In this document: one piece after another, positions 7,390-63,218 of the stretch
Numbering within the stretch: the first letter of the stretch is position 1
How the letters are laid out: each line of letters starts with the position of its first letter
Source of the DNA: Patescibacteria group bacterium
GTDB lineage: Bacteria > Patescibacteriota > Minisyncoccia > Phycocordibacterales > SIBU01
Direction: 5' to 3'
Length of the DNA stretch: 64,000 nucleotides
NCBI GenBank assembly: GCA_040390045.1
Contig: JAZJZC010000004.1
Span: 579 to 64,578, forward strand
Translations under genes and position numbers: made by a program
The notes under the pieces: generated by a model
What the model was told of the DNA's origin: nothing
Seen by the model: only the letters and a program-made list of their open reading frames with translations
The model's database searches: none

Positions 7390-8493
7390 TTATACCCGTT
7401 CAAGCTGACTAAAAATTTTCGAAAGTGGCGCGCTTGCCATGCAGACGTGTTTATCACCTCCGCCGTAGTATACGAAGAGTGTGTCGTTTTTAATAACCGC
7501 TCCGCAGGCGTAAATTACTCCCGGCTTCCAATCATTCTCATACCATTCATCGGGAACAAGCAGAGGATTTTTTGCTTTAGCCAAAACGTTTTGCGGATTA
7601 TTCAAATCTAAAAGTAGAGCTCCAAGTTTGTAGCGATCCGGATCTTTTTTATCAATCGCATGATAGAGCACAAGCCAGCCTTTTTCTGTTAGCAAAGGTG
7701 GCGGTCCCACTCCGCGTCTCATTGTATCCCATCCCTTAGCTCTTGGTTCTTGCGCAAAACGACTTTTTATCACGTTTCGGCCAGTTGTGAGATCTTCGAG
7801 TCGGTCGACATAATCAATTTGTACATTCGGCGAAACGCTGTGCAAAATGGCAAATTTCCCATTAATTTTTTTAGGAAAGAGCACCCAATTTTTGTGGATC
7901 TCTCCCTTCGGAGAAATGAACAAGGGTTTACTCCAATTCCATTTCTTCTCAAAAAAATCTTTTTCTTTTATCGAAACAGCGGCGATGCGAATAAAATCCC
8001 AACCATCGAAGGCGTTAAAAGTGACGTAAAGCCTGTCGTCAATTTTAACAATGCGGGGATCCTCAGCTCCGCCCCAGCTTCCACCAGAAGGATAGAGTCC
8101 GAAATCATATCGTTGAAGTTTTCGAGGAACATTGCTTCTCGGCGTGTCGAGGGCAAAGACCGGATAGGGAACAAAGTCATTAAATTCAATACCATCTTTG
8201 CTAGCGGAATATCCAAATCGCGAAATGCCATCAGAGCCCGTGGCGCGATAGAGCAAGTGAATTTTTCCATGCTCATCGGCAATGGCGGCCGGATTAAATG
8301 TTCCCGTCGCTTGCCACCAGTGTTCTTCTTTTGGTGAGAGCAGTGGATTTTTGGTGTGCCGCGCGAGTGAGTGTTTTTCAGATTCTGCCTGAGATTTTTT
8401 GGCTTTTCGAACGAGGCGTCTGGACAATACAAAAGCCAGAATCAAAATGGAAATAATTAAAATTAGATCTGTAAAAAGAAAAGATAACGGCAT
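7390..8493 (-). CDS. GH130 family protein with N-terminal membrane anchor
   Basis: An N-terminal TM helix is followed by NPLLSP...GAEDPRIV...YYGGGD motifs. Confidence 0.65.
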   Translation of the reverse strand: MPLSFLFTDLILIISILILAFVLSRRLVRKAKKSQAESEKHSLARHTKNPLLSPKEEHWWQATGTFNPAAIADEHGKIHLLYRATGSDGISRFGYSASKDGIEFNDFVPYPVFALDTPRSNVPRKLQRYDFGLYPSGGSWGGAEDPRIVKIDDRLYVTFNAFDGWDFIRIAAVSIKEKDFFEKKWNWSKPLFISPKGEIHKNWVLFPKKINGKFAILHSVSPNVQIDYVDRLEDLTTGRNVIKSRFAQEPRAKGWDTMRRGVGPPPLLTEKGWLVLYHAIDKKDPDRYKLGALLLDLNNPQNVLAKAKNPLLVPDEWYENDWKPGVIYACGAVIKNDTLFVYYGGGDKHVCMASAPLSKIFSQLERV

Positions 8494-8527
8494 GAATTAT
8501 AAAAAATCGATTTGTAATCGAAAATGC

Positions 8528-8890
8528 CTAGGCCCGTCCATACTTATCCTCAAAACGAACGATATCTGCTTCGTCAAATTCACCGCGCGAAATTTCTAAA
8601 AAAACTACGGGACTTGAGCTGGCTTCGATGTGATGTTTTGTTCCTCGCAGAACGCTGTATTCAAGTCCAGGCGCGACGGCTGTTTTTGTGCCACCCACAG
8701 TAATTGTTCCTTCCCCAGAAATAATTTTCCAAAACTCATCTCGATGTTCGTGTGATTGCAAACTAAACGCCTGTCCAGCATTGACCGTAATAATTTTAAC
8801 TGTCACCGGTTCATTTTTGGTAAATCGGGTAAACGATCCCCATGGCCGCTTTTCAGTATATATAGAGTTATCCATAGAAGTACCACCCAT
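8528..8890 (-). CDS. cupin domain protein (mannose-6-phosphate isomerase-like small cupin)
   Basis: The cupin motif G(X)5HXH (SLQSHEHRDEFWKIISGEGTITVGG) is present. Confidence 0.6.
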   Translation of the reverse strand: MGGTSMDNSIYTEKRPWGSFTRFTKNEPVTVKIITVNAGQAFSLQSHEHRDEFWKIISGEGTITVGGTKTAVAPGLEYSVLRGTKHHIEASSSPVVFLEISRGEFDEADIVRFEDKYGRA

Positions 8891-30513: not shown

Positions 30514-31164
30514 TTAAAATAGTTTCGCCTGATCCGGTTTTCCGGATTTTTTAATAGCAGAGGAAGAAGTTTCATTTTTGGCGGCGGCCGTTCCGGCCGC
30601 CGCATCTATGCTCACCTCGTTTCCAAGCAGCGAAGGCAATTTCTTAAAATCAGCTTTCAAGTCGTCCATAACCCCTGCTGCTCGAAGCGCTGCCGCAGGA
30701 TGAAAAAGCGGATAAATTTTTTTATTTTCAACCTCAAATATTTTACCGTGATCTCGTGTGATTTTAGCCAACGGCAAAAAATAATTCATCGAAAATCGTC
30801 CGAGTGTGGCGATTACTTTCGGATTGATAATTTCGATTTGTTTGGCCAAAAACGGCTTGTACGCCTCGATTTCCTCGGGAAGCGGGTCACGATTTTCTGG
30901 AGGCCGCCTTTTCACAATATTGGTGATATAGACGTCGGATCGCTTCCACTTGATACTTCCCAACATGTCATCGAGAAGCTTGCCTGAGCGCCCCACAAAG
31001 GGCCTTTTAAGCTGGTCCTCAGTAAATCCCGGAGCTTCGCCGATAAACATTACCTGGCAATCAATGTTGCCTTCGCCAAATACCAGATTGGCAGTTTTTT
31101 TCAACAGCAAATCAGCAATGACTAATTCTTTTTCCAGCTCCTGCAGTCTCTGTTTTTTATCCAT
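30514..31164 (-). CDS. uracil-DNA glycosylase, family 4
   Basis: Family 4 UDG motifs (GEGNIDCQVMFIGEAPG...RPFVGRSGKLL...HPAAALR). Confidence 0.75.
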   Translation of the reverse strand: MDKKQRLQELEKELVIADLLLKKTANLVFGEGNIDCQVMFIGEAPGFTEDQLKRPFVGRSGKLLDDMLGSIKWKRSDVYITNIVKRRPPENRDPLPEEIEAYKPFLAKQIEIINPKVIATLGRFSMNYFLPLAKITRDHGKIFEVENKKIYPLFHPAAALRAAGVMDDLKADFKKLPSLLGNEVSIDAAAGTAAAKNETSSSAIKKSGKPDQAKLF

Positions 31165-51757: not shown

Positions 51758-52765
51758 ATGGAACTCGACTTTCAAAATATTCGCCAACTTCTTGAGACGA
51801 GGCTTGAGCAGAGACGTCAAAATCGCAACGTTTGGTTTTTGGCAATTTTGGCCGTGCTGCTTTTTGTGACTTCTGTTTATTTTTTGTATATACAATCACC
51901 GACAAATTTCGTGACACCTGCAATCGTGAATGTGAAGGAAAATGCTAGCCTCAATGAAATTGCCCAGTCTCTCTATAGTCAGAAGGTTGTGAAGTCTGCA
52001 TTTGCCTTTCGCACAGGAGTAATTGCAAAGGCGGGGGAGAAAGGGGTTCACTCGGGAGATTATCTATTTAAGAATCCAGCAAATTTGTTTACGGTCATTT
52101 CGCGATTAACGAAAGGTGATTATCAATTGACACCAGTAAAAGTTTTATTTCCCGAAGGTGTCACCGTTTCGCAGATGTCCGTGATTTTGTCTGACAAGCT
52201 TATTGATTTTGATTCCGAAGCATTTATTAGGCTCGGCAAACCATTGGAAGGCTATCTTTTTCCTGACACCTATTTATTTTTACCGAATGCCAAGCCATTG
52301 GACGTTATCGACGTGCTTAAAGAAAATTTTGATAGCAAAATTAAAACCGTAGATGACTTGATTAAGAAATTTAAGAAGCCAGTTAAAGATGTGGTGATCA
52401 TGGCCTCGATTTTAGAAGCCGAAGCCCGTACTAAAGAAACGCGGCAAATTATTTCTGGCATTCTGTGGAAAAGATTGAGTCTTGGTATGCTGCTCCAGGT
52501 TGACGCACCATTCCAATACATCATTGGTAAAAATACATTTCAATTGACGACTGCTGATTTAAAATTCGATTCTCCATACAATACCTACAAATACAAAGGT
52601 TTGCCCCCAGGTCCGATTGGAAATCCCGGACTCGAGGCTATTATCGATGCTGTGACGCCGCAAAAAACTTCTTACTTTTATTACTTGTCTGATGTGCGCG
52701 GCAACATGCATTACGCAAAAACCTACGAGGAGCATTTGCTCAATAAAGAACGTTTTTTAAATTAG
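51758..52765 (+). CDS. mltG: endolytic murein transglycosylase MltG (YceG family)
   Basis: N-terminal TM helix followed by the YceG signature (LASILEAEA...YNTYKYKGLPPGPIGNPGLEAI). Confidence 0.8.
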   Translation: MELDFQNIRQLLETRLEQRRQNRNVWFLAILAVLLFVTSVYFLYIQSPTNFVTPAIVNVKENASLNEIAQSLYSQKVVKSAFAFRTGVIAKAGEKGVHSGDYLFKNPANLFTVISRLTKGDYQLTPVKVLFPEGVTVSQMSVILSDKLIDFDSEAFIRLGKPLEGYLFPDTYLFLPNAKPLDVIDVLKENFDSKIKTVDDLIKKFKKPVKDVVIMASILEAEARTKETRQIISGILWKRLSLGMLLQVDAPFQYIIGKNTFQLTTADLKFDSPYNTYKYKGLPPGPIGNPGLEAIIDAVTPQKTSYFYYLSDVRGNMHYAKTYEEHLLNKERFLN

Positions 52766-53142
52766 CGTTCTTTAGAATTAAGAATTAGGAATTATGAATG
52801 AGGAAAATTTGTACGATATATCGTACAAATTTTAATTTTAAAAGGAAAAGAAAAAACCGAGCGGAAAGGCTCGGTTGGTGATAAATGGTGGCGACTACTA
52901 TACGACATACCAATCACTTTTTATGCGCATCTCACAGTGTGGGCAATACCAAACCCTACACTGTACTGTTAAGCCGAAGTTTTCAGTCTTTGTTGTCTTG
53001 TCAATTCGTGACGGATATGCCCCATCCGGAACAATGTGTTTGCAGACCATTTGCAAATCACCGAGCGTCCTTGGTTTTTTGTTTTTCACAAACTCATCAT
53101 TCACATTTGAGCGTTTCTAAAAAAGATGCTACATTCGGTGTC

Positions 53143-54342
53143 ATGACAAGTCAAGTTCTAAATTCTAAACCCTATACCCTAAACCCTAAAACCTTCGGAC
53201 GGGTTTTCGTCGGGCTTTCCGGCGGAGTGGATTCGTCCGTTTCTGCGGCACTGCTAAAAAAAGATGGGTTTGATGTGACCGGAGTTTTTATCCGTGTTTG
53301 GCAACCGGATTGGATTCTATGCACCTGGAAAGAAGACCGACTCGATGCTATGCGTGTCTGTGCCAAGCTCGGCATTCCATTTGTTGAATTAAATTTGGAG
53401 AAGGAATACAAAAAAGAAGTGGTTGACTACATGATTGCGGAATATAAAAAAGGCAACACACCGAATCCGGATGTGATGTGCAATCGCTATGTAAAGTTTG
53501 GGGGGTTTTATGAATTCGCGCGAAGTTCTGGCGCAGACTACGTCGCAACAGGCCACTATGCGCGGGTCATGGAACATGGAACATGGAACACAGAACATAA
53601 GACAGGGGATAGAAGACAGAAGAAAAAGACCGGCTCTTATGCTCCAGGCTCCATGCTTCATGTTGCGTGTGATGCCAACAAAGACCAGTCCTACTTCCTC
53701 TGGCAAATTCGCAAGGAGCAGTTGTCGCACATTTTATTTCCAGTCGGTGGATTGGAAAAACCAGAGGTTCGTCGATTAGCGAAAAAATTCGGTTTAATTA
53801 CTGCTGACAAAAAAGACAGCCAAGGACTTTGCTTCCTGGGCAAGATCGATATGAAAGATTTTTTGAAAAGATATATTTCAGAAAAAAAAGGAAAAGTCTT
53901 AAATGAAAGCGGAGAAATTATCGGGACACACTCTGGTGCAGTTTTTCTCACACTTGGAGAACGACACGGGTTCACGGTGAATGTGGAATCCGCCGCGGCG
54001 GACGGAACGAACGCTGAAAACAAGCTTCCATATTATGTGGTGAGTAAGGACATTAAAAAGAATACGATTATTGTTTCGAACAATCCTAAAAGTGAAATGA
54101 CTATTGGTTCAAAAAAAGTATTTGAAATTCGAGATACAAATTGGTTGGGAGAAGCGCCAACGATCGGTAAAAAATATTTAGCACGAATCCGCTATCGTCA
54201 ACCATTGCAGGAGGTTAGATTCAAGATTCATGATTCAAGATTCATGATTCACTTTGCGTCTTCGCAAAGTGGCGGGGCTCCCGGCCAGTCTATAGTTATA
54301 TATGACGGCGAAATTTGCCTCGGTGGGGGAGTTATTTGCTAA
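53143..54342 (+). CDS. mnmA: tRNA 2-thiouridine(34) synthase MnmA (with two in-frame repeat-derived insertions)
   Basis: PP-loop VGLSGGVDSSV, then ATGHYARV and KDQSYFLW. The start was reassigned to ATG 53143. Insertions sit at about 53575-53660 and 54219-54255. Confidence 0.8.
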   Translation: MTSQVLNSKPYTLNPKTFGRVFVGLSGGVDSSVSAALLKKDGFDVTGVFIRVWQPDWILCTWKEDRLDAMRVCAKLGIPFVELNLEKEYKKEVVDYMIAEYKKGNTPNPDVMCNRYVKFGGFYEFARSSGADYVATGHYARVMEHGTWNTEHKTGDRRQKKKTGSYAPGSMLHVACDANKDQSYFLWQIRKEQLSHILFPVGGLEKPEVRRLAKKFGLITADKKDSQGLCFLGKIDMKDFLKRYISEKKGKVLNESGEIIGTHSGAVFLTLGERHGFTVNVESAAADGTNAENKLPYYVVSKDIKKNTIIVSNNPKSEMTIGSKKVFEIRDTNWLGEAPTIGKKYLARIRYRQPLQEVRFKIHDSRFMIHFASSQSGGAPGQSIVIYDGEICLGGGVIC

Positions 54343-55045
54343 ATTAGGTGTATTCCAGGTTTTCCACTGCTGGACTTGCAAAAGTTCTCACAATAAGAGA
54401 GTATTAAATTTCATGCGGGCATGCATGACCAACGAGTGTTGGGGCGCCGCTCAGGCCCATCCCTTATGTCTTTCTGGGTGTTTCCCTGAGCGGCGCTATG
54501 CCTTTAAGTTTTTTGATTTCGCGGGGTAGGTGATTCCCCCGCATGGAGTGGGTGATGGTTGCCTGGGCAACCGGCGTCGTGCGAGGCGAGCCTCCAAACT
54601 GCGGTGGTAAAAATAACCTCGCACGACGCCCAATCACAAATTTTTTCGAGGAAAACAATTGCGCCCACCTCGTTTTGGGTGAGGACTCATGTGAGTCGCA
54701 CCCAGCACCGTGCAGGTCACACCTGGCCTACGCATGTGGGTTCAAACCTGCACGGTGCTAATCACTTTGTTCTTTGTACATCTTTCGCCGAAGGTTACTC
54801 TTTATTTCCTTTGCGCGAACGCCGTGCGGGAGAGCTCTCCCAATTCTCCTCGTTTGGGAGCAAGCCCTGCACGGCGACCAACTCTTTCTTTTGTTTTTTA
54901 CGTTCGACCGCATGCACCAGCTCGCGGTTTTCTTTTGCTTCGCGTTTTATGTTACGTGCTACATGTTCCCCGCCCGCCCGAACGGATTCAGGTGCGTTCG
55001 GGCGGGCATGTTCCGTGGTCTGTGGTCCGTGTGATATAATCTTTG
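54343..55045. other. 700 nt GC-rich ORF-free hairpin-dense region (candidate structured RNA/5' leader)
   Basis: About 55% GC. Long perfect hairpins lie at 54572-54630, 54706-54760, 54826-54888 and 54972-55005. All ORFs in it translate to low-complexity sequence. Confidence 0.45.
55030..55040 (+). promoter_or_regulatory. extended -10 element TGTGATATAAT 8 nt upstream of the ATP-cone/REase start
   Basis: TGn-TATAAT consensus. Confidence 0.5.
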
Positions 55046-55047
55046 CC

Positions 55048-55893
55048 ATGAGTCCCGAACAAATTTTCATCGTAAAAACCAACGGTAGTAAGGAACCTTT
55101 TCAAAATTCCAAACTCGAAGCTTCGCTTCGAAAGGCTGGCGCGTCAACTGAGGTTACCGATAAAATTGTTCATCACATTTCCAAAGAAATTGAAGATGGC
55201 ATGAGCACCTCGGCTATTTATCAGCATGCTTTTGAATTACTCCACAAATTAGAGCGTCCCGTCGTTGCGCGTTACTCATTAAAGAGAGCAATTGCCGAAC
55301 TCGGCCCATCTGGTTTTCCATTTGAAAAATTTATTTCTGAAGTCTACAAGGCGCAGGGCTTCGAAACGCTCACCGATCAAATGGTGGATGGACATTGTGT
55401 CAGTCATGAGGTTGATGTGGTAGCGTGGAATGAAAATAAATTAATTATGGCCGAAGCCAAATTTCATAATGAAATTGGGTTGAAATCGGATCTAAAAGTG
55501 GCGCTGTATGTTAAGGCTCGATATGAGGATTTGAAGGGTATGGAGTTTTTGTATGGCAAAAAACGTCAACTCGACGAAGGCATTTTGATAACCAATACTA
55601 ATTTTACCGAAAAGGCGATTCAATATTGTGAGTGTGCTGGAGTTAAGTTGATCGGTTGGAATTATCCTACCGCTGGAAATCTACACGATATGATTGAGGA
55701 TCACGGCTTGCATCCGATCACTTGTTTGACGACGCTTTCAAGCGGACAGAAAAAAAGTTTGATGGAGAAGGGGATTGTCCTGTGCAGAAATGTTCGAGAT
55801 GGACGAGAAGCGCTTTTGTCTGCTGGCTTGAGTGAGGCTTCGATTAAGGAAGCCCAAGATGAGAGTAATTTCCTGTGTCCCGTGACTATGTAA
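55048..55893 (+). CDS. ATP-cone domain fused to Mrr-like (PD-(D/E)xK) restriction endonuclease domain
   Basis: N-terminal ATP-cone (IFIVKTNGSKEPFQNSKLEASLRKAG). C-terminal REase core (HEVDVVAW...MAEAKFH). The start was reassigned to ATG 55048. Confidence 0.65.
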   Translation: MSPEQIFIVKTNGSKEPFQNSKLEASLRKAGASTEVTDKIVHHISKEIEDGMSTSAIYQHAFELLHKLERPVVARYSLKRAIAELGPSGFPFEKFISEVYKAQGFETLTDQMVDGHCVSHEVDVVAWNENKLIMAEAKFHNEIGLKSDLKVALYVKARYEDLKGMEFLYGKKRQLDEGILITNTNFTEKAIQYCECAGVKLIGWNYPTAGNLHDMIEDHGLHPITCLTTLSSGQKKSLMEKGIVLCRNVRDGREALLSAGLSEASIKEAQDESNFLCPVTM

Positions 55894-56085
55894 TGAAATA
55901 TGATGAAAGATTTTTTAAAAAAAAATGAAAAGGCGGTTTCAGTGGCAATCATTAGTTTTGCGGTTGGGTTCGGTTTTTCTCTTGTTTTGATGAAGGTGTA
56001 TGCACACAGTGAAATTATCGGCAATTTTTGCGCGAGAACGGCAGAGCAGGCGCAGGCGTATTTTAACTCTCTTTAGTAAATTACA

Positions 56086-57603
56086 ATGTCACCGAACCCC
56101 TATGAATATCAACCTTCTGTTGAAAGATCGGATCAATTCTTCAATTTTTATAAATCACTGGTCGAGGCAACCTCTTCCAACAATGGACTTAGTAATGAGG
56201 AGCTAGCCGTGCGGTTAGAAAAATTACGAAGTGAAAAATCCCTAATCGTCGATGCGCTGCCAGGCCTAAATGCACCTCGGGCAATGTCTATTATAGATCG
56301 ATTTCTAAGCGCAGAAGAGAATGCTTCAGATGAACAGGATATGAGCGGTTTTGTAACTCTTGGTTTGGAGCTATTTGAGCAGCTTCGACCGCAGATTGAG
56401 ATGGCATTGAAACGACATGATATTGACGAACTGAGAGTTTTAATTTCTTACTCTCATGTAGCTGAACATGGTCATGATAATCAGCCATATATGGCAATTG
56501 CTGGATTGATGGATCATATGGAAAGTATAGAAAAAAAAGTAATGGGCCCAGAGAATTTTGATCGATATCAGTATTTTGTGCAATTAATATTGGAAAGGGG
56601 GGATGTAAGCCAGCGTTCTGTGGCACGAGATCTTTTGATAAAATCTGCAGAGGCAAATATAGATAATCAAAAATTTTCTGGTTTGGTTTCTAGATTCTAC
56701 GCTGGTTTTAATAACGAGGAAATCGGAATGGAAATTATTCAAAAATTTTTGGTGCGTCATAAATTACCATTTACTGAGGTGTATTCTGCGTGGGGTGAAA
56801 GTGGTAATTACAAGAAAAGAAAACATGCCACGGAGGAAGATGGTGGAATGCTTTTTAGCACAGTTATTTATCGCAATCTGGATGTGATTCGTGAAGTTGA
56901 AGCCAAGAATCCAGGAACCTGTAGGTTTTTATATGACGAGTTTAACATTGCTGATTTTGGGCGTTATCCTGCGGAATTACTTTTGGATCAACGCAGAGAA
57001 TTTGATAGTCAAAAAAATCCGTATGGTGTTATTATTTATCCTCGCAATGATCATAATGGCGCTTTTTATCAGGACGCTCTTACGATTAAGGCGTTTTACG
57101 CGGATCTAAAGGGTGAGTTTAGTCTCCGCGTTGCTGAATGTGAAGGAAAGATTGATGTCGTGCGAGCGTTGCAAAAATTCGATGGGCTGTATAATCCAAC
57201 AGACGGAAGTGGCCATAAAATTTCTTTGCTGATTCTTGGAGGTCATGGTACAGAAAATTCTATTCAGTTTGGCGGAGGAGGAAAGAAGCATACTTTGTAT
57301 ACAGAAGATTTGTCGAGAAAAGTATCAACGAAAGCTGGCGGGTATCTTGATGAGAATCCCACAATAATTCTAGATTCATGTTCGACAGGTGCGGATAAGG
57401 GAATTGGGCAAGAATTATCAAGAAAATTTGGAGCGAAGGTGGTGGCTCCGAAAACACCTACGGGTTTGCGGAGCCTTCACGCTAGTCAGAGTAGCGGGGG
57501 TAGTTTTAGATTTAATGCACAGTATAGTACAAAAACAAAAAGCGTTTTCAAGCATGGAGAACCAGTTTTAACTCATGGGGAAAATCAAATTACAACGCAA
57601 TGA
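56086..57603 (+). CDS. CHAT-domain (caspase-like HG...C protease) protein with N-terminal helical-repeat region
   Basis: The C-terminal 180 aa carry a His-Gly/Cys dyad in CHAT spacing (LLILGGHGTENSIQFGG ...35 aa... TIILDSCSTGADKG). The stop overlaps the next start (ATGA). Confidence 0.5.
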   Translation: MSPNPYEYQPSVERSDQFFNFYKSLVEATSSNNGLSNEELAVRLEKLRSEKSLIVDALPGLNAPRAMSIIDRFLSAEENASDEQDMSGFVTLGLELFEQLRPQIEMALKRHDIDELRVLISYSHVAEHGHDNQPYMAIAGLMDHMESIEKKVMGPENFDRYQYFVQLILERGDVSQRSVARDLLIKSAEANIDNQKFSGLVSRFYAGFNNEEIGMEIIQKFLVRHKLPFTEVYSAWGESGNYKKRKHATEEDGGMLFSTVIYRNLDVIREVEAKNPGTCRFLYDEFNIADFGRYPAELLLDQRREFDSQKNPYGVIIYPRNDHNGAFYQDALTIKAFYADLKGEFSLRVAECEGKIDVVRALQKFDGLYNPTDGSGHKISLLILGGHGTENSIQFGGGGKKHTLYTEDLSRKVSTKAGGYLDENPTIILDSCSTGADKGIGQELSRKFGAKVVAPKTPTGLRSLHASQSSGGSFRFNAQYSTKTKSVFKHGEPVLTHGENQITTQ

Positions 57604-57869
57604 AAAATATATCTTTCAAAGAAAAAGTTTTTTTAATAGTTCGAAAAATTCCCAAAGGAAAAGTTTTGACCTACAAGGAGGTTGCTCGTCGCGCGGGTAA
57701 TACAAATGCATCCCGTGCCGTGGGCGCCGTGTTGCGAACAAATTTAGACTTAGCCATTCCATGTCACCGTGTCATCCGAAGTGACGGTAGTTTCGCAGGA
57801 TACAATCGCGGTGGTACAAAAAGAAAAATCGAAATTCTCAGGAAGGAAGGATATACTTTCAGTCTATGA
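57600..57869 (+). CDS. MGMT-family DNA-binding domain protein (Ogt C-terminal domain-like, PCHRV active-site motif retained)
   Basis: 89 aa. The PCHRV motif and the HTH of the 6-O-methylguanine alkyltransferase DNA-binding domain are present. The gene is translationally coupled on both sides by ATGA overlaps. Confidence 0.65.
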   Translation: MKNISFKEKVFLIVRKIPKGKVLTYKEVARRAGNTNASRAVGAVLRTNLDLAIPCHRVIRSDGSFAGYNRGGTKRKIEILRKEGYTFSL

Positions 57870-58255
57870 TTGTTGCTCAGAAATTAGTGAAAAAATTTGT
57901 AGAAGCTCGGGGTTGGGAAAACCAACTACCAGCAGATGTGGCGAAGTCGATCTCAATTGAAGCGGCGGAACTTCTTGAACTTTTTCAGTGGTCAAGTCCT
58001 AGAGCGGCTGATGTTAAAAACGACAAGCAGAAATTTTTTGATTTGAAATGTGAACTGGCCGACGTTTTAATTTACTGCATGCATATGGCCACAATTTTAG
58101 GATTGGATCCTGAGAAAATCGTGAGAGACAAATTGGTTATCGCTGGTAAAAAATATCCTGTGCGATTGGTGCGCAAGTACGGTGAAAATGATACGTCTGC
58201 CACGGAAAAATATTTAAAAATTAGAAACGCGTATCGTAAAAACCGAAAAAAATAA
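57866..58255 (+). CDS. MazG-like nucleotide pyrophosphohydrolase
   Basis: All-alpha NTP-PPase motifs (EAAELLELFQW...ELADVLIYCMHMA). Confidence 0.65.
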   Translation: MIVAQKLVKKFVEARGWENQLPADVAKSISIEAAELLELFQWSSPRAADVKNDKQKFFDLKCELADVLIYCMHMATILGLDPEKIVRDKLVIAGKKYPVRLVRKYGENDTSATEKYLKIRNAYRKNRKK

Positions 58256-58259
58256 TCAC

Positions 58260-58691
58260 ATGGCAAAATACTGGACAGCAAAAAATTACGAGGACGTCGA
58301 AAAAGCGGAAGTTTTTTCAGAGCTTTTTGTTGTGGCTAGTGAAATCCTGAACTCAATTCCCGAACCAGTGGCTTTAGTCTCAGGACCGATTTCAACGGGG
58401 GGACTTGGATCAATTGAAAAAAATTTAGAGGTGATGGCACGAAATATTGCCGCTTTAGAGAAAAAGGGTGTGCACATTTTTAATCAATTGCCGTTTGAAA
58501 ATAAATTTAAGGAATTTTCTAAAAATTCGAAGGAATACTACACACCGATACTTGATCATTTTTACCTTCCGCTTTTTCAAACTGGAAAAATTACCAAAAT
58601 TTTCTTTGTGCCTGGTTGGGAAACTTCTACTGGAGCCAAGTGGGAATACGAGCAGGCTGAAAAGCTTGGAATCGAAAAAATCTTACTCTAA
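58260..58691 (+). CDS. DUF4406 / nucleoside 2-deoxyribosyltransferase-like protein
   Basis: LVSGPISTGG...FFVPGWETSTGAKWEYEQAEKLG matches the DUF4406 pattern. Confidence 0.5.
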   Translation: MAKYWTAKNYEDVEKAEVFSELFVVASEILNSIPEPVALVSGPISTGGLGSIEKNLEVMARNIAALEKKGVHIFNQLPFENKFKEFSKNSKEYYTPILDHFYLPLFQTGKITKIFFVPGWETSTGAKWEYEQAEKLGIEKILL

Positions 58692-58788: not shown

Positions 58789-60132
58789 GTGAATTCCGCC
58801 CATAACCTCCAAGAGACACACGAAGGGATCGTTGACATGAGAACATCTGCAATCACACACGGTGTCAGAATAGCCCGGCTGTTAGAGTCGGGTCAGTTGC
58901 GTACTCAGGACTTGGCGAAGTTTGCCGAGAAAGCCGAAGCCGCCTTTTACCCAGACGATGAAGTTGGCCGGACCGTTTCCATAGCGTTTACCATTGCCCT
59001 CGCGGCCGTTGATGACCGTGGTCCCAAGCTGGGACAGTTGGAGGCTTCCGTGTCCAAAGAGGTCTGGAACAATGAGGCAAAATGTGGCAGTTTAATCACT
59101 AAATTGGAGGATGCAGTGAAAGCCCGAAATGTTTTGGGTCAGGAACAGTTGGCCCGCGTTTGTGGATTGAAGGCTGAACTTGGTATTGAATTCTCGGTGC
59201 ATCCGCGGATCGAGTTCCCTGACGCCCTTGCTCTCGCATCGGCTCTTGTTGCACGAGCGCCACACGCGAAAAACGATTACGTTCATATGATGGAGGCACA
59301 AGGAGCTCTTGCACGGGCTTACCGGGAACTTCCTGGAAGTCTCCTGACGATGGAAGCCTGGCTTTTGAATATTGAGGCGAGGCTTCGACGTGGCAAAGAT
59401 GAGTGGGATTTTGCCGGTCTTGGTGCTGATTCAATGCCTAAATACTGTCCCTTACGGCCATGGGCATTCAATTCGCTTTTTCGAGTGACTCAATTACCAG
59501 CAGATTTTTCCGCCGCGCGATCTGCCGCGGAATTATTTCTGGACTTGGACCACGAGAAGGAAGCAAACCGCCCGCTTATAAACGCGGGATTGCACGCGCT
59601 CATTGCCCTTGCAGAGATTGCGGATTACAGTGGTCAGAAAGATTTGCAACCGGAAATTAAAGCCATCAACCAGGAGGTCCTGGGCTGGGTTGATGCCGCG
59701 CCGGAACAACTCTGCCTTGCTGACAGGATTGAAGTTTTGGTGAGGCTTTTTGGTGCGACCCGCGATCCGAAGTATGCTGTCCGATGCAGTAATTTGATGG
59801 CTTCGACAACTACCGGAGTTCCAAATGTGATCGAGAGCTACATCCGTCTTTTTGGTTTCGGTTATACCGATCTAAAAGCGGATTACTTGCTCAGGCAGGT
59901 AAAGGTATATGGAGATGAGGGGATAGTTGGGCGTCGGCGAAAAGCTAGTCTACTCCTACTGGCCATCGAAAATTCGGTCGTGAATAAAGTGGATGCTCCG
60001 AAAGTTTGGCGTGAGGCCTACGCCTTCGCCGAGCAGGAATTGGGTGACGCAGAAAAGTTCGAACTTTTCTGCCGCCTCGCCCGCGTGGCGAAGACGATGG
60101 CAGAGGTGCCAGTGTTTCCGCCGAAGTCGTAA
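58789..60132 (+). CDS. hypothetical protein (GC-rich, likely foreign)
   Basis: 447 aa, about 55% GC, Ala/Leu/Arg-rich helical. No recognised domain. Confidence 0.45.
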   Translation: MNSAHNLQETHEGIVDMRTSAITHGVRIARLLESGQLRTQDLAKFAEKAEAAFYPDDEVGRTVSIAFTIALAAVDDRGPKLGQLEASVSKEVWNNEAKCGSLITKLEDAVKARNVLGQEQLARVCGLKAELGIEFSVHPRIEFPDALALASALVARAPHAKNDYVHMMEAQGALARAYRELPGSLLTMEAWLLNIEARLRRGKDEWDFAGLGADSMPKYCPLRPWAFNSLFRVTQLPADFSAARSAAELFLDLDHEKEANRPLINAGLHALIALAEIADYSGQKDLQPEIKAINQEVLGWVDAAPEQLCLADRIEVLVRLFGATRDPKYAVRCSNLMASTTTGVPNVIESYIRLFGFGYTDLKADYLLRQVKVYGDEGIVGRRRKASLLLLAIENSVVNKVDAPKVWREAYAFAEQELGDAEKFELFCRLARVAKTMAEVPVFPPKS

Positions 60133-60196
60133 GGAGTTCTTTTATTTTTTCCAGCCGAGTTGCCCAGCGCATCTCGGTTTTTTCTTTTGCCCGCTA

Positions 60197-60234
60197 CCCG
60201 TCAACCTGCCACGTCGACGTGGCAGGTTGACGGG
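60197..60234. terminator. 38 nt perfect palindrome cccgtcaacctgccacgtc/gacgtggcaggttgacggg
   Basis: Perfect inverted repeat after the 58789-60132 gene. A second hairpin lies at 60244-60268. Confidence 0.6.
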
Positions 60235-60424
60235 TGTCGAAATGCCATTCGCACATTCGTACGAATGGGCGAATAACAATCATTATTTGACGCTTTTTTA
60301 AAATGCTGTATGTTGAAACTCGGTCTGTTCTTTGCAAGCAATTGTCGAGACAACCAACTCACGGCGAAGCTGGCCTTGTGTCAGACGTAGCCAAAGCGAA
60401 ACGCAGAATTGAAAGGATCAACCT

Positions 60425-61354
60425 ATGCTACATGCAAAGGGTAGTCTTAGCAGTGTGGAAGATGGTCACGGCATGCACAGATGGAATCCCTATCATGTGG
60501 GACACAACCTGACATCGCCGGTCCTAGATGCACTTGGAAGGAACAAAGTCGAAGCCGGTCATTTAGGTTTACTTCTGAAAGATAGGGATCGACTTGAACG
60601 TGTCGCGCGGATGATTCGTTGTGGTGGATGGTCTCTTACAGAAATGGAGGCTAGAGCATTCGATGTCCTCGGTGAATCGAGGATGCATATTGCAGATCAA
60701 GTCACAGGTTTGTGGGAGAGGCGGAAGGCTACTCTGCAAATGAAGAGTTTTGCTCTTCCGTGCGACATGATTATGGCTGCGCCGGAACGGCTCGTGTTTA
60801 TCCTGGGACTTCCTCTGATGGAAATGTACGAAAAAATCTGCCAGCATCCTCTTATTTCCCATCGACTGATGACGGAGAAAGTGCTGCCACAAATTAAAAA
60901 ATGGGAAAAGGAATATGAGCCAGCACAAGCTGGCTACCACCTCATTCGTCCACTTCAATACCAGGACAAGATTCGCTGGAATGAAGAGTCGCATGGGCGA
61001 AATATTACCCGGGAAGAAACCCTGGAGGTAATAGACTCGATCGAACCGGCCTTCCAGTATGCTTCACCCGCACTTGTTCTGGAGGCCATGATCTCGCATC
61101 TATACATCGTCGGCTACAGCGAAAAAGTTGACGAGGACACCAACGTGATCAGTCAGTTCAGTCACCGTGTCCCTGTTTCTAGGTCGGTTACTACGGTGGC
61201 GGCCGCAAATTTTGTTGGCTGCTTTTTCACCTCAGACGGAGGAGGGGAAACCTTTCCAGCAAGCAATCGAAAGCCGAAAGAGTATTATCTCGCAGTTATG
61301 CACTACCCATGGAATGGTTGGTCAGGCAATACGGTTATTTCTCGGAAACTTTGA
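60425..61354 (+). CDS. hypothetical protein (GC-rich, likely foreign)
   Basis: 309 aa, about 52% GC. Confidence 0.4.
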   Translation: MLHAKGSLSSVEDGHGMHRWNPYHVGHNLTSPVLDALGRNKVEAGHLGLLLKDRDRLERVARMIRCGGWSLTEMEARAFDVLGESRMHIADQVTGLWERRKATLQMKSFALPCDMIMAAPERLVFILGLPLMEMYEKICQHPLISHRLMTEKVLPQIKKWEKEYEPAQAGYHLIRPLQYQDKIRWNEESHGRNITREETLEVIDSIEPAFQYASPALVLEAMISHLYIVGYSEKVDEDTNVISQFSHRVPVSRSVTTVAAANFVGCFFTSDGGGETFPASNRKPKEYYLAVMHYPWNGWSGNTVISRKL

Positions 61355-61445
61355 GTTAATTTTTTTTCGTGCCCCGCGACTGCGTCGCGGGGCTTTTCTT
61401 TTTATGAGTTTTGAGAAATTTGCTGAATTCTGTATAATTGCCACC

Positions 61446-63218
61446 ATGATGACTTCCAGCGAAATCCGCCAGAAATTTCTAAAATTTTTTGAGAAACGTG
61501 GTCACGCTGTGATTCCGTCGGCATCGCTTGTGCCTGAAAATGATCCTTCTGTGCTTTTTAATACTGCAGGGATGCAACCCTTGGTGCCCTATCTTTTAGG
61601 AAAAAAGCATTCTAAAGGTACTCGTTTGGTTAATGTTCAAAAATGTGTTCGCACTCAAGATATCGATGAAGTTGGAGACAACACGCACGATACTTTTTTT
61701 GAAATGCTTGGTAATTGGTCACTCGGGGACTATTTTAAAGAAGATGCTATTAAATGGAGTTATGAACTTTTAACCTCTAAAGAGGAAGGATTTGGGTTGG
61801 ATCCAAAGAGGTTGTATGTAACGGTTTTTGGAGGAAATGATGACGCGCCGAAAGACATGGAGAGTTTTGAAATTTGGAAAAAGTATATTCCTGAGAATCG
61901 AATATATTTTTTAACGTGGAACGGAAAGAAAGAGCCAAATTGGTGGGACGCAGGAGCGGATGGTCCCTGTGGCCCAGATACAGAAATGTTTTATGATATT
62001 ACTGAAGAGGGAATTGGCGATATGACCAAGGAGGAATATTTGCGCGCTGATAGTGAGCAAAAAGTGGTGGAAATCTGGAACGATGTGTTCATGGAATTTG
62101 TTAAAAAGGATGGAAAAGTAACTGGAAAACTTTCTGCCAAAAATGTTGATACAGGTTCGGGTCTCGAACGGCTGGTCATGGCCATTCAAAAGAGGGATAA
62201 CGTTTTTGCCACGGATCTATTTCAGCCGCTCATGGACAAGATCGATGAATTTACCTCTACGAAGGATCAAACCTTAATCAAATCAAAAAGAATTGTAGCA
62301 GATCACATCCGAACCTCGGTGTTTATGATTGGAGACGGAGTTGTTCCGTCAAATACCGAGCAGGGGTATATCCTAAGAAGGTTGTTACGCCGAGCAGTTA
62401 GACATGCAGACAAACTTTCAATGAAGCACGGTTCACTTTTCTGGATTGCGGAAACGGTTATTGAAAAATACAAGGAGGTGTATCCAGAACTGCTTGAACG
62501 AAAAGAGATAATAAAAACTGAAATTGATAAGGAAGAGCAGAAATTTAGAACCACGCTTGATCGAGGTTTGAAAGAATTTGAAAAAGGAACGGATCCTTTT
62601 ACACTTTTTTCAAGTTATGGATTTCCAATTGAACTGACGATGGAGTTGGCACAGGAAAAAGGTGTTGTGATTGACATAGAAAAATTTAATGAAGAATTTA
62701 AAAAACATCAGGAACTTTCACGCTCTGGTGCTGAGCAAAAATTTAAAGGCGGCTTGGCCGACGCGGGGAATCCAACAGTTGTAAAATATCATACAGCGAC
62801 GCACTTACTTCATCAGGCTTTGCACGACGTGCTCGGAGAAAATGCCAATCAAAAGGGAAGTAACATTACGCCAGAGCGACTACGATTTGATTTTTCACAT
62901 GATACGAAAATGACTGATGAAGAAAAAAAACGAGTGGAAGATATTGTAAACAAAAAAATTACAGAAGCAATGCCAGTAGGTAATGTTATTTTGCCTCGTA
63001 CCGAGGCTGAGAAAGTTGGTGCGCGACATTTCTTTGGCGAAAAATACGGAGAGGAAATTTCGATTTATTTTATCGGTAACGATTTACAATCAGCATATTC
63101 CAAAGAATTTTGCGGTGGCCCACACGTCAAAAACACCTCAGAAATCGGACATTTTAAAATTGTTAAAGAAGAGGCAGTTTCAGCTGGAGTTCGGAGAATT
63201 AAGGCGGTGATTAGTTAG
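61446..63218 (+). CDS. alaS: alanine--tRNA ligase, short form (catalytic + tRNA-recognition + editing-site HxxxH)
   Basis: The N-terminal class II AlaRS motifs (SEIRQKFLKFFEKRGH...FNTAGMQ...MLGNWSLGDYFK) and HTATHLLHQALHDVLG are present. It lacks the C-terminal domains of long AlaRS. The start was reassigned to 61446. Confidence 0.8.
   Translation: MMTSSEIRQKFLKFFEKRGHAVIPSASLVPENDPSVLFNTAGMQPLVPYLLGKKHSKGTRLVNVQKCVRTQDIDEVGDNTHDTFFEMLGNWSLGDYFKEDAIKWSYELLTSKEEGFGLDPKRLYVTVFGGNDDAPKDMESFEIWKKYIPENRIYFLTWNGKKEPNWWDAGADGPCGPDTEMFYDITEEGIGDMTKEEYLRADSEQKVVEIWNDVFMEFVKKDGKVTGKLSAKNVDTGSGLERLVMAIQKRDNVFATDLFQPLMDKIDEFTSTKDQTLIKSKRIVADHIRTSVFMIGDGVVPSNTEQGYILRRLLRRAVRHADKLSMKHGSLFWIAETVIEKYKEVYPELLERKEIIKTEIDKEEQKFRTTLDRGLKEFEKGTDPFTLFSSYGFPIELTMELAQEKGVVIDIEKFNEEFKKHQELSRSGAEQKFKGGLADAGNPTVVKYHTATHLLHQALHDVLGENANQKGSNITPERLRFDFSHDTKMTDEEKKRVEDIVNKKITEAMPVGNVILPRTEAEKVGARHFFGEKYGEEISIYFIGNDLQSAYSKEFCGGPHVKNTSEIGHFKIVKEEAVSAGVRRIKAVIS

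Follow-up and report, generated by a model that had tools for sequence, protein, structure and literature searches.

The five-gene cluster analysed here, g1-g5, occupies positions 55048-58691 of a 64,000-nucleotide stretch of Patescibacteria DNA, which we call the window. Its proteins carry the NCBI locus tags V4467_039xx and belong to a metagenome-assembled genome of the Paceibacteria type. An earlier, sequence-only reading of this DNA had proposed a novel defence or nucleotide-sensing island, in which an ATP-cone-Mrr endonuclease was joined by a coupled CHAT-MGMT-MazG-DUF4406 operon. Our comparison with about 140 related loci led to a different picture. The locus is likely to be a housekeeping damage-control neighbourhood, made up of a core ATP-cone nuclease, a MazG plus DUF4406 pair and a mini-Ogt, to which an unrelated putative clan-CD protease was added in one lineage. 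All five consecutive same-strand open reading frames (ORFs) were present where the sequence-only reading had placed them, together with a small ORF between g1 and g2 that it had overlooked:

55048-55893, + strand: g1, ATP-cone plus PD-(D/E)xK nuclease, 281 aa (Pfam, match to PDB 1Y88, synteny)
55900-56076, + strand: small ORF, 58 aa (ORF list; hydrophobic stretch by eye)
56086-57603, + strand: g2, clan-CD cysteine-peptidase-like protein, 505 aa (without a Pfam model)
57600-57869, + strand: g3, stand-alone MGMT/Ogt C-terminal domain, 89 aa (PF01035, TIGR00589)
57866-58255, + strand: g4, MazG-like all-alpha (deoxy)nucleoside triphosphate ((d)NTP) pyrophosphohydrolase, 129 aa (PF12643, PHROG)
58260-58691, + strand: g5, DUF4406 protein with a nucleoside 2-deoxyribosyltransferase (NDT) fold, 143 aa (profile match)

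Pfam confirmed both halves of the fusion claimed for g1, an ATP-cone (PF03477, E = 9.4e-9, 36.1 bits against a cut-off of 25.8) and a PD-(D/E)xK Mrr-like nuclease (Mrr_cat, PF04471, E = 1.5e-5, 25.5 bits against a cut-off of 21), and added a weak AF1548-like match at the C-terminus. The nuclease half is AF1548-like: a profile of the g1 family matched AF1548 in the PDB (1Y88) at 9.5e-39 over residues 94-276, a clear homology. Unlike g1, AF1548 has no ATP-cone, and it has no known function. Among 39 aligned sequences, the ATP-cone residues K10, G13 and K22 were invariant, as was the nuclease motif E121, D123...E136-x-K138. Judged by the profile and the conserved lysines and glycine, g1 is an ATP-cone protein, with nucleotide binding predicted. 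NrdR and ribonucleotide reductase likewise carry the ATP-cone at the N-terminus; the cone of NrdR is joined to a zinc ribbon, whereas that of g1 is joined to a nuclease. The Pfam scan of g1 detected no Mrr_N winged-helix or other modified-DNA reader domain, the N-terminus being the ATP-cone. A literature search for ATP-cones combined with Mrr or restriction endonucleases returned nothing relevant and no paper describing the fusion.

The distribution of g1 pointed to a core gene. We retrieved 6257 homologues, of which the best 120 without exception had 55-85% identity and a length of about 280 aa. When GTDB was scanned with one genome for each species, loci were confirmed in at least 599 species genomes. 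Median identity was 53% for g1, compared with 52% for mnmA and 59% for alaS. Although the Mrr_cat catalytic domain of type IV restriction enzymes is present, the sporadic distribution typical of restriction genes was not seen. Wide distribution, conservation and synteny together show that g1 behaves as a core housekeeping gene, conserved like mnmA and alaS and unlike a restriction or defence gene. Its synteny is defined by three backbone genes in the window:

51758-52765, + strand: mltG (YceG; PF02618), upstream backbone member
53143-54342, + strand: mnmA, tRNA 2-thiouridylase (PF03054 and related families), directly upstream of g1 in relatives
61446-63218, + strand: alaS, alanyl-tRNA synthetase (tblastn), downstream backbone anchor

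The order mltG-mnmA-g1-[variable slot]-alaS was conserved across Paceibacteria-type genomes. In the 80 best-scoring g1 loci (L013-L092, with g1 at about 8001-8830), searched by tblastn with the window proteins, mnmA lay just upstream of g1 in 64 of the 69 loci with enough upstream sequence (median junction 86 nt), mltG preceded mnmA in 60 of 80, and alaS followed g1 in 45 of the 50 loci whose downstream sequence is 8 kb or longer. The length of the slot that separates g1 from alaS ranged between 97 and 7310 nt (median 2.0 kb). To describe its residents, slot ORFs from 58 loci were clustered and the cluster representatives scanned against Pfam. The most common resident was a glycosylase of the uracil-DNA glycosylase (UDG) superfamily (41 of 58 loci), directly behind the nuclease g1; then came Peptidase_M3 (18), a PDDEXK_1 nuclease (11), MgtC (7), an HD_3/YfbR-like 5'-deoxynucleotidase (6), EamA (6), Peptidase_M29 (5), PCMT (3) and HD_4 (3). 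By tblastn, MGMT was found in the slot of 15 of the 80 loci, DUF4406 in six and MazG in two; neither g2 nor either of two GC-rich ORFs that follow g5 in the window was found in any of them. In the window, the UDG gene sits elsewhere, at a distance of 24 kb (30637-31083, minus strand).

Two loci illustrate the arrangement without the protease. In L011 and L012 (58% identity in g5), the order is mltG-mnmA-g1-MGMT-(purC, on the opposite strand)-MazG-DUF4406-alaS. Here g1 overlaps MGMT and MazG overlaps DUF4406, and neither g2 nor a 700-nt spacer nor the GC-rich ORFs are present.

The assignments of g4 and g5 in the sequence-only reading were borne out. The g4 protein matched PF12643 (MazG-like) at 1.2e-13 (51.5 bits against a cut-off of 27) and a PHROG pyrophosphatase at 1.9e-9. 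Its translation contains the acidic motifs EAAELLE and ELAD, which we infer to be the catalytic metal-binding motifs (ExxE...ExxD). The match of g5 to DUF4406 (PF14359) was close to the cut-off (22.6 bits against 22) and covered residues 110-139 only; roughly half of the g5 homologues have a precomputed PF14359 match, and two are named DUF4406 proteins by NCBI. The protein has the NDT/Rcl fold, that is, the flavodoxin-like deoxyribosyltransferase fold that had been claimed for it, with an invariant SxGxxxE motif and a conserved acidic catalytic residue. The g5 profile gave nothing meaningful against the PDB, and a literature search on DUF4406 found nothing relevant.

DUF4406 adjoined an NTP pyrophosphatase in six of ten contexts. 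The partner was MazG-like (PF12643) in the window, L011 and L057, MazG (PF03819) in L014 and L017, and a NUDIX protein in L072; in L038, DUF4406 adjoins UDG instead. L014 combines several of the slot families in the order g1 - 286-aa ORF - MGMT - PCMT - HD_3 - DUF4406 - MazG. MazG-type enzymes convert NTP to NMP and pyrophosphate (PPi), and proteins of the NDT/Rcl/MilB fold act on (d)NMPs or nucleosides by cleavage or transfer at the N-glycosidic bond. Taken together, the recurrent adjacency and the known chemistry of both folds suggest a two-step disposal of non-canonical nucleotides by MazG and DUF4406. This would be analogous to the house-cleaning of modified pyrimidine nucleotides by DCTPP1 and DNPH1/Rcl, to which the MazG-like g4 and the NDT/Rcl fold of g5 would correspond.

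For g3, matches to DNA_binding_1 (PF01035, 1.1e-27) and TIGR00589 (76.7 bits against a cut-off of 46.4) were strong, and the PCHRV motif shared with Ogt/MGMT proteins is retained at residues 54-58, with the acceptor cysteine Cys55. Whereas canonical Ogt/MGMT proteins have two domains, g3 consists of the C-terminal domain alone (89 aa), the N-terminal domain being missing; MGMT relatives in the slot are similar in size. By eye, we take the human residues Tyr114, Arg128, Asn137, Cys145, His146 and Glu172 to correspond to Tyr25, Arg39, Asn48, Cys55, His56 and Glu83 of g3. The sequence-only reading had called g3 an MGMT/Atl-like protein with PCHRV. The MGMT domain and the motif stand, while an alkyltransferase-like (Atl) protein is ruled out by the retained Cys55, since Atl proteins have tryptophan or alanine at this position.

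The gene that probably does not belong with the others is g2. It had been described as a CHAT protease with an HG...C dyad. However, the Pfam scan of g2 returned no CHAT match (PF12770) at E <= 0.1, the list of the 25 families matched most often by 75 members of the g2 family, at the same threshold, did not include CHAT, and no Pfam family scored above threshold for g2 or 74 relatives. The sole Pfam match of g2 was to DUF4347 (PF14252) and lay below threshold (12.9 bits against 24.6). DUF4347 is also the sole Pfam model with recurrent matches in the family, all of them sub-threshold (4 of 75 members); Peptidase_C14 matched in 2 of 75, again below threshold. In the family alignment H387, G388, S431 and C432 were invariant. 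The AlphaFold2 model of g2 was confident (predicted local distance difference test 90.9, predicted template modelling score 0.90). In it, helical repeats make up the N-terminal domain (about residues 1-305), and an alpha/beta domain follows (about 313-490); the closest solved structure was a DUF4347/Tce1 protein. According to this model, the C-terminal domain is a clan-CD caspase-like fold with a His387/Cys432 dyad, as it shows the alpha/beta caspase-haemoglobinase fold, with His (followed by Gly) and the later Cys both positioned at hydrophobic strand ends. The invariant dyad and the clan-level fold therefore indicate that the dyad and fold had been read correctly and that the CHAT family name was wrong. 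We regard g2 as a putative cysteine peptidase, with activity predicted from the model.

Comparable proteins are found among secreted effectors and toxins. A recent study describes Tce1 and Tce2 as effectors that are putative clan-CD cysteine proteases and whose His and Cys align with the dyad of the TcdB cysteine protease domain (CPD), the spacing of the dyad being 45 residues in TcdB (His110/Cys155), 50 in Tce2 and 54 in Tce1 (PMC13323088). In these type VI secretion system (T6SS) effectors of P. aeruginosa (PDB 9qpe), as in the TcdB/MARTX CPD (C80), His precedes Cys and each follows a beta-strand, as in g2; the His387-Cys432 spacing of 45 equals that of TcdB and is near those of Tce2 and Tce1. 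Unlike Tce1 and Tce2, which are T6SS cargo, g2 is a chromosomal, apparently cytosolic Patescibacteria protein with a 300-residue helical-repeat N-domain and no secretion context. Helical repeats followed by a caspase-like domain also occur in TPR-CHAT/Csx29 of Craspase and in separase, an architecture common to g2. In contrast to CHAT systems such as SAVED-CHAT and TPR-CHAT, none of the 75 g2 family members scanned gave a CHAT hidden Markov model (HMM) match, and g2 lacks conserved neighbours altogether, including any SAVED, CRISPR or other sensor. Genomic linkage to a sensor or an effector (SAVED, gRAMP, TPR/NACHT and similar), a mark of CHAT proteases, was not seen.

Profile searches revealed a large g2 family: clustered at 50% identity, it comprises 2774 clusters, 1914 of them with E <= 1e-10, and most members have a length of about 500 aa. 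The N-terminal helical domain diverges fast, and the region from about residue 230 to the end is well conserved. Against the PDB, the single g2 sequence gave no match, and the profile matched only designed helical repeats, over the N-domain. No relatives were found in phage (tblastn) or viral-contig collections. Six of seven contexts that we looked up consisted of housekeeping or uncharacterised genes unrelated to those of the window: ligA/ftsW; map/glycosyltransferase (GT2)/greA; ftsW/rplY; a site upstream of xseA/xseB; mreB/holB; and hypothetical genes. In 49 further metagenome loci, neighbours in common with the window occurred only in a lineage of 54% identity and in one relative of 47% identity, which has MGMT 2 kb downstream of g2 (L095). 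Clustering of 209 neighbouring ORFs from 47 loci revealed no recurrent partner. The g2 family may be a new, class-wide clan-CD protease family with a housekeeping role.

In the window itself the four genes g2-g5 are closely packed. Direct reading of the DNA confirmed the ATGA start/stop overlaps of g2 with g3 (57600-57603) and of g3 with g4 (57866-57869); the gap between g4 and g5, previously given as 5 nt, is 4 nt (58256-58259). In the background of the window, according to a crude ORF map, gaps of roughly 100-150 nt are typical and overlaps are limited to a handful. The g2-g5 junctions are tighter than this, and local co-transcription and translational coupling are therefore plausible. The 58-aa ORF directly upstream of g2 contains a membrane-helix-like stretch, judged by eye. 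A counterpart of 60% identity occupies the same position in L001 and L094, and it was absent from the other g2 loci.

The sequence-only reading had named domain searches, a PADLOC run and a comparison of gene neighbourhoods as checks on a novel anti-phage island, in which the ATP-cone Mrr nuclease, the caspase-like protease and the MGMT/MazG/DUF4406 effectors would act as one system. Same-strand genes, the ATGA overlaps and the 4-nt gap favour such a system, and so do the GC-atypical DNA on both sides and the weak PADLOC matches between g1 and the Mrr-like nuclease domains found in ZorD (3.5e-5) and CARF_PDDEXK (about 0.02). These matches were generic nuclease-domain matches, however, and PADLOC called no system and was silent on g2-g5 and the flanking ORFs. 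PHROG and NCBIfam likewise returned generic names and no defence-system match. Of the domains named, ATP-cone, Mrr_cat, DNA_binding_1, MazG-like and DUF4406 were recovered by Pfam HMMs and CHAT was not. The gene combination is confined to relatives of at least 47% identity, and the searches of phage, plasmid and viral collections, made with g2 and the GC-rich ORFs, found no relatives. Homologues that are not co-localised and sit in housekeeping contexts had been named beforehand as the outcome that would overturn the proposal, and this is what the neighbourhood comparison returned: g1 is core, syntenic and conserved like alaS and mnmA, and homologues of g2 lie among housekeeping genes with no conserved partner. 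Patchy distribution, conserved co-localisation and a defence-island neighbourhood, the general marks of defence genes, were all missing. With g1 a core gene, PADLOC empty and the CHAT assignment gone, the island is not supported, and neither is the idea that the CHAT-MGMT-MazG-DUF4406 operon is a single functional unit; we consider a joint anti-phage system very improbable. The alternative that the sequence-only reading had offered, a modified-nucleotide salvage or DNA-repair module, fits g3-g5 and the neighbourhood overall.

A narrower restriction hypothesis would make g1 a type IV Mrr-like endonuclease gated by the ATP/dATP pool, with MazG and DUF4406 detoxifying modified phage nucleotides. 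The Mrr_cat match, the weak ZorD and CARF_PDDEXK nuclease matches, the intact D...ExK motif and the presence of an ATP-cone sensor would all suit this role. Yet g1 has no Mrr_N or other reader of modified DNA, and its best match is AF1548 rather than Mrr. Near-universal presence, high conservation and a fixed place behind mnmA are atypical for restriction genes, and the commonest neighbour of g1 is UDG, a repair gene. We hold this hypothesis to be improbable, if somewhat less so than the complete defence island. Marginally better, though still with little in its favour overall, is a lineage-specific operon whose repair module would be a target of the g2 protease; g2 might, for instance, degrade alkylated mini-Ogt or process MazG or DUF4406. 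Alkylated MGMT is removed by proteolysis in other organisms, and this scheme would account for the translational coupling of g2 and g3, with an ATGA overlap tighter than the window background. The order g1-small ORF-g2-MGMT-MazG is kept in L001 and L094, and MGMT lies downstream of g2 in L095. Nevertheless, the adjacency is limited to two or three lineages that are close relatives, MGMT is missing within 5 kb of g2 in about 50 other loci, 15 of 80 g1 loci carry MGMT without g2, and in L011 MGMT overlaps g1 directly, with no protease there.

Several points have to be set against a housekeeping neighbourhood with an unrelated protease. The 80 g1 loci, chosen by best score, all belong to one class, and part of the synteny may be due to common descent. 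For the census of neighbours, crude ORF calls and tblastn/blastp took the place of curated annotation. Moreover, the slot also houses M3 and M29 peptidases, MgtC and EamA, and its repair flavour is thus not exclusive. Finally, g2-g5 are probably co-expressed in this genome, the closest relative of g2 (54% identity) keeps the order g1-small ORF-g2-MGMT-MazG, and a lineage-specific functional link of g2 with its neighbours may exist.

With these points weighed, we favour the damage-control neighbourhood and propose the following mechanism. The ATP-cone of g1 would sense ATP/dATP and gate the AF1548-like nuclease for DNA maintenance or repair. The slot behind it gathers damage-control genes (UDG, MGMT, PD-(D/E)XK nuclease, HD/YfbR, MazG, NUDIX, DUF4406 and PCMT) along with some peptidases and transporters, and in the window it holds three such genes, g3-g5, and one unrelated gene, g2. 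As a one-domain Ogt, g3 would transfer O6-alkyl groups to its own Cys55 in a suicide reaction. The MazG-like g4 is expected to hydrolyse non-canonical (d)NTP to (d)NMP and PPi, and g5 may then cleave or transfer the N-glycosidic bond of the resulting (d)NMP, so that g4 followed by g5 would form a two-step clean-up of the nucleotide pool, in analogy to DCTPP1 followed by DNPH1/Rcl. The putative protease g2, accompanied by the small ORF upstream of it, belongs to a large free-standing Patescibacteria family of putative cytosolic clan-CD cysteine proteases; it would have landed between g1 and MGMT in this lineage only, and the ATGA overlaps would reflect local co-expression and not a conserved multi-protein machine. 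Going one step further, we tentatively suggest, as a possibility with the odds against it, that g1 could be an unrecognised core DNA-maintenance enzyme of Paceibacteria, a nuclease switched by the ATP/dATP pool and working with UDG, mini-Ogt, MazG plus DUF4406 and the YfbR-like HD protein. If true, the g1 locus would be a nucleotide-pool-gated repair locus in organisms unable to make their own nucleotides.

With the claim of a new defence system, a false lead is removed. What is left should be of use to research on Patescibacteria (candidate phyla radiation, CPR), in particular a widespread and conserved ATP-cone-nuclease fusion at a fixed genomic position. The placement of DUF4406 beside MazG and NUDIX pyrophosphatases suggests for this uncharacterised domain a function that can be tested, and the large putative clan-CD cysteine protease family without a Pfam model remains of interest. 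None of the three (ATP-cone fusion, DUF4406 pairing, protease family) will greatly surprise a specialist, and each is directly testable.

The GC-rich DNA around the cluster was examined separately. Its features are:

54343-55047, + strand: GC-rich (0.53) multi-hairpin spacer (RNAfold z-score), genome-specific and outside the gene set
58837-60132, + strand: GC-rich ORFan 1, 431 aa from ATG or 447 aa from an upstream GTG
60425-61354, + strand: GC-rich ORFan 2, 309 aa; strong terminator-like hairpin behind it (61371-61393)

The sequence-only reading had taken the structured spacer and the two GC-rich downstream genes as borders of the island. The elements themselves exist, but they do not delimit a mobile unit. 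The genes g1-g5 have the GC content of the host (about 0.40; window 0.43), and g1, MGMT, MazG and DUF4406 are syntenic in relatives that have no GC-rich DNA; for these reasons a mobile island carrying g1-g5 was rejected, and the GC-rich segments are separate lineage-specific insertions. The 705-nt spacer folds into long, near-perfect hairpins arranged one after another, with RNAfold z-scores of -11.8 (+ strand) and -7.5 (- strand). Searched against Rfam (gathering cut-offs and E <= 1), the spacer and the whole region gave only tRNAs elsewhere in the window and chance microRNA matches. The three GC-rich or non-coding stretches, compared by nhmmer with 92 loci and the window, returned self-matches only. 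Among the long mnmA-g1 junctions of relatives none was comparably GC-rich or structured, and no counterpart of the spacer was found in 80 junctions. One automatic gene call extends g1 into the spacer (400 aa instead of 281), and the start of g1 lies within a reverse-strand ORF of 95 aa (54795-55082).

Downstream, ORFan 1 and ORFan 2 (GC about 0.51-0.52) matched no family in Pfam, NCBIfam, PHROG or PADLOC and were absent from the 80 syntenic loci. By tblastn, ORFan 1 had no match among phages and neither ORFan had one among plasmids; scans of viral contigs for both likewise gave no relatives. The segment 58789-61354 that contains them looks like a lineage-specific insertion between DUF4406 and alaS. 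Between the two ORFs lies a perfect 40-nt palindrome, ACCCGTCAACCTGCCACGTC / GACGTGGCAGGTTGACGGGT, at 60196-60235, and the Logan contig L093, an independent assembly of the same organism, ends near it. The hairpin behind ORFan 2 has a 10-bp stem with 9 G-C pairs, followed by a T-run. The best promoter-like match (sigma-70-like, 11/12) lies at 61411-61438, immediately upstream of alaS. The succession of terminator-like hairpin and promoter match before alaS suggests that alaS and the slot genes are transcribed separately. On the other side of the cluster, the frame of mnmA is open from 52885, about 86 codons (52885-53142) before homology begins at about 53143, and near its 3' end mnmA contains an exact 14-nt tandem duplication, GATTCAAGATTCAT, in two copies (54218-54245).

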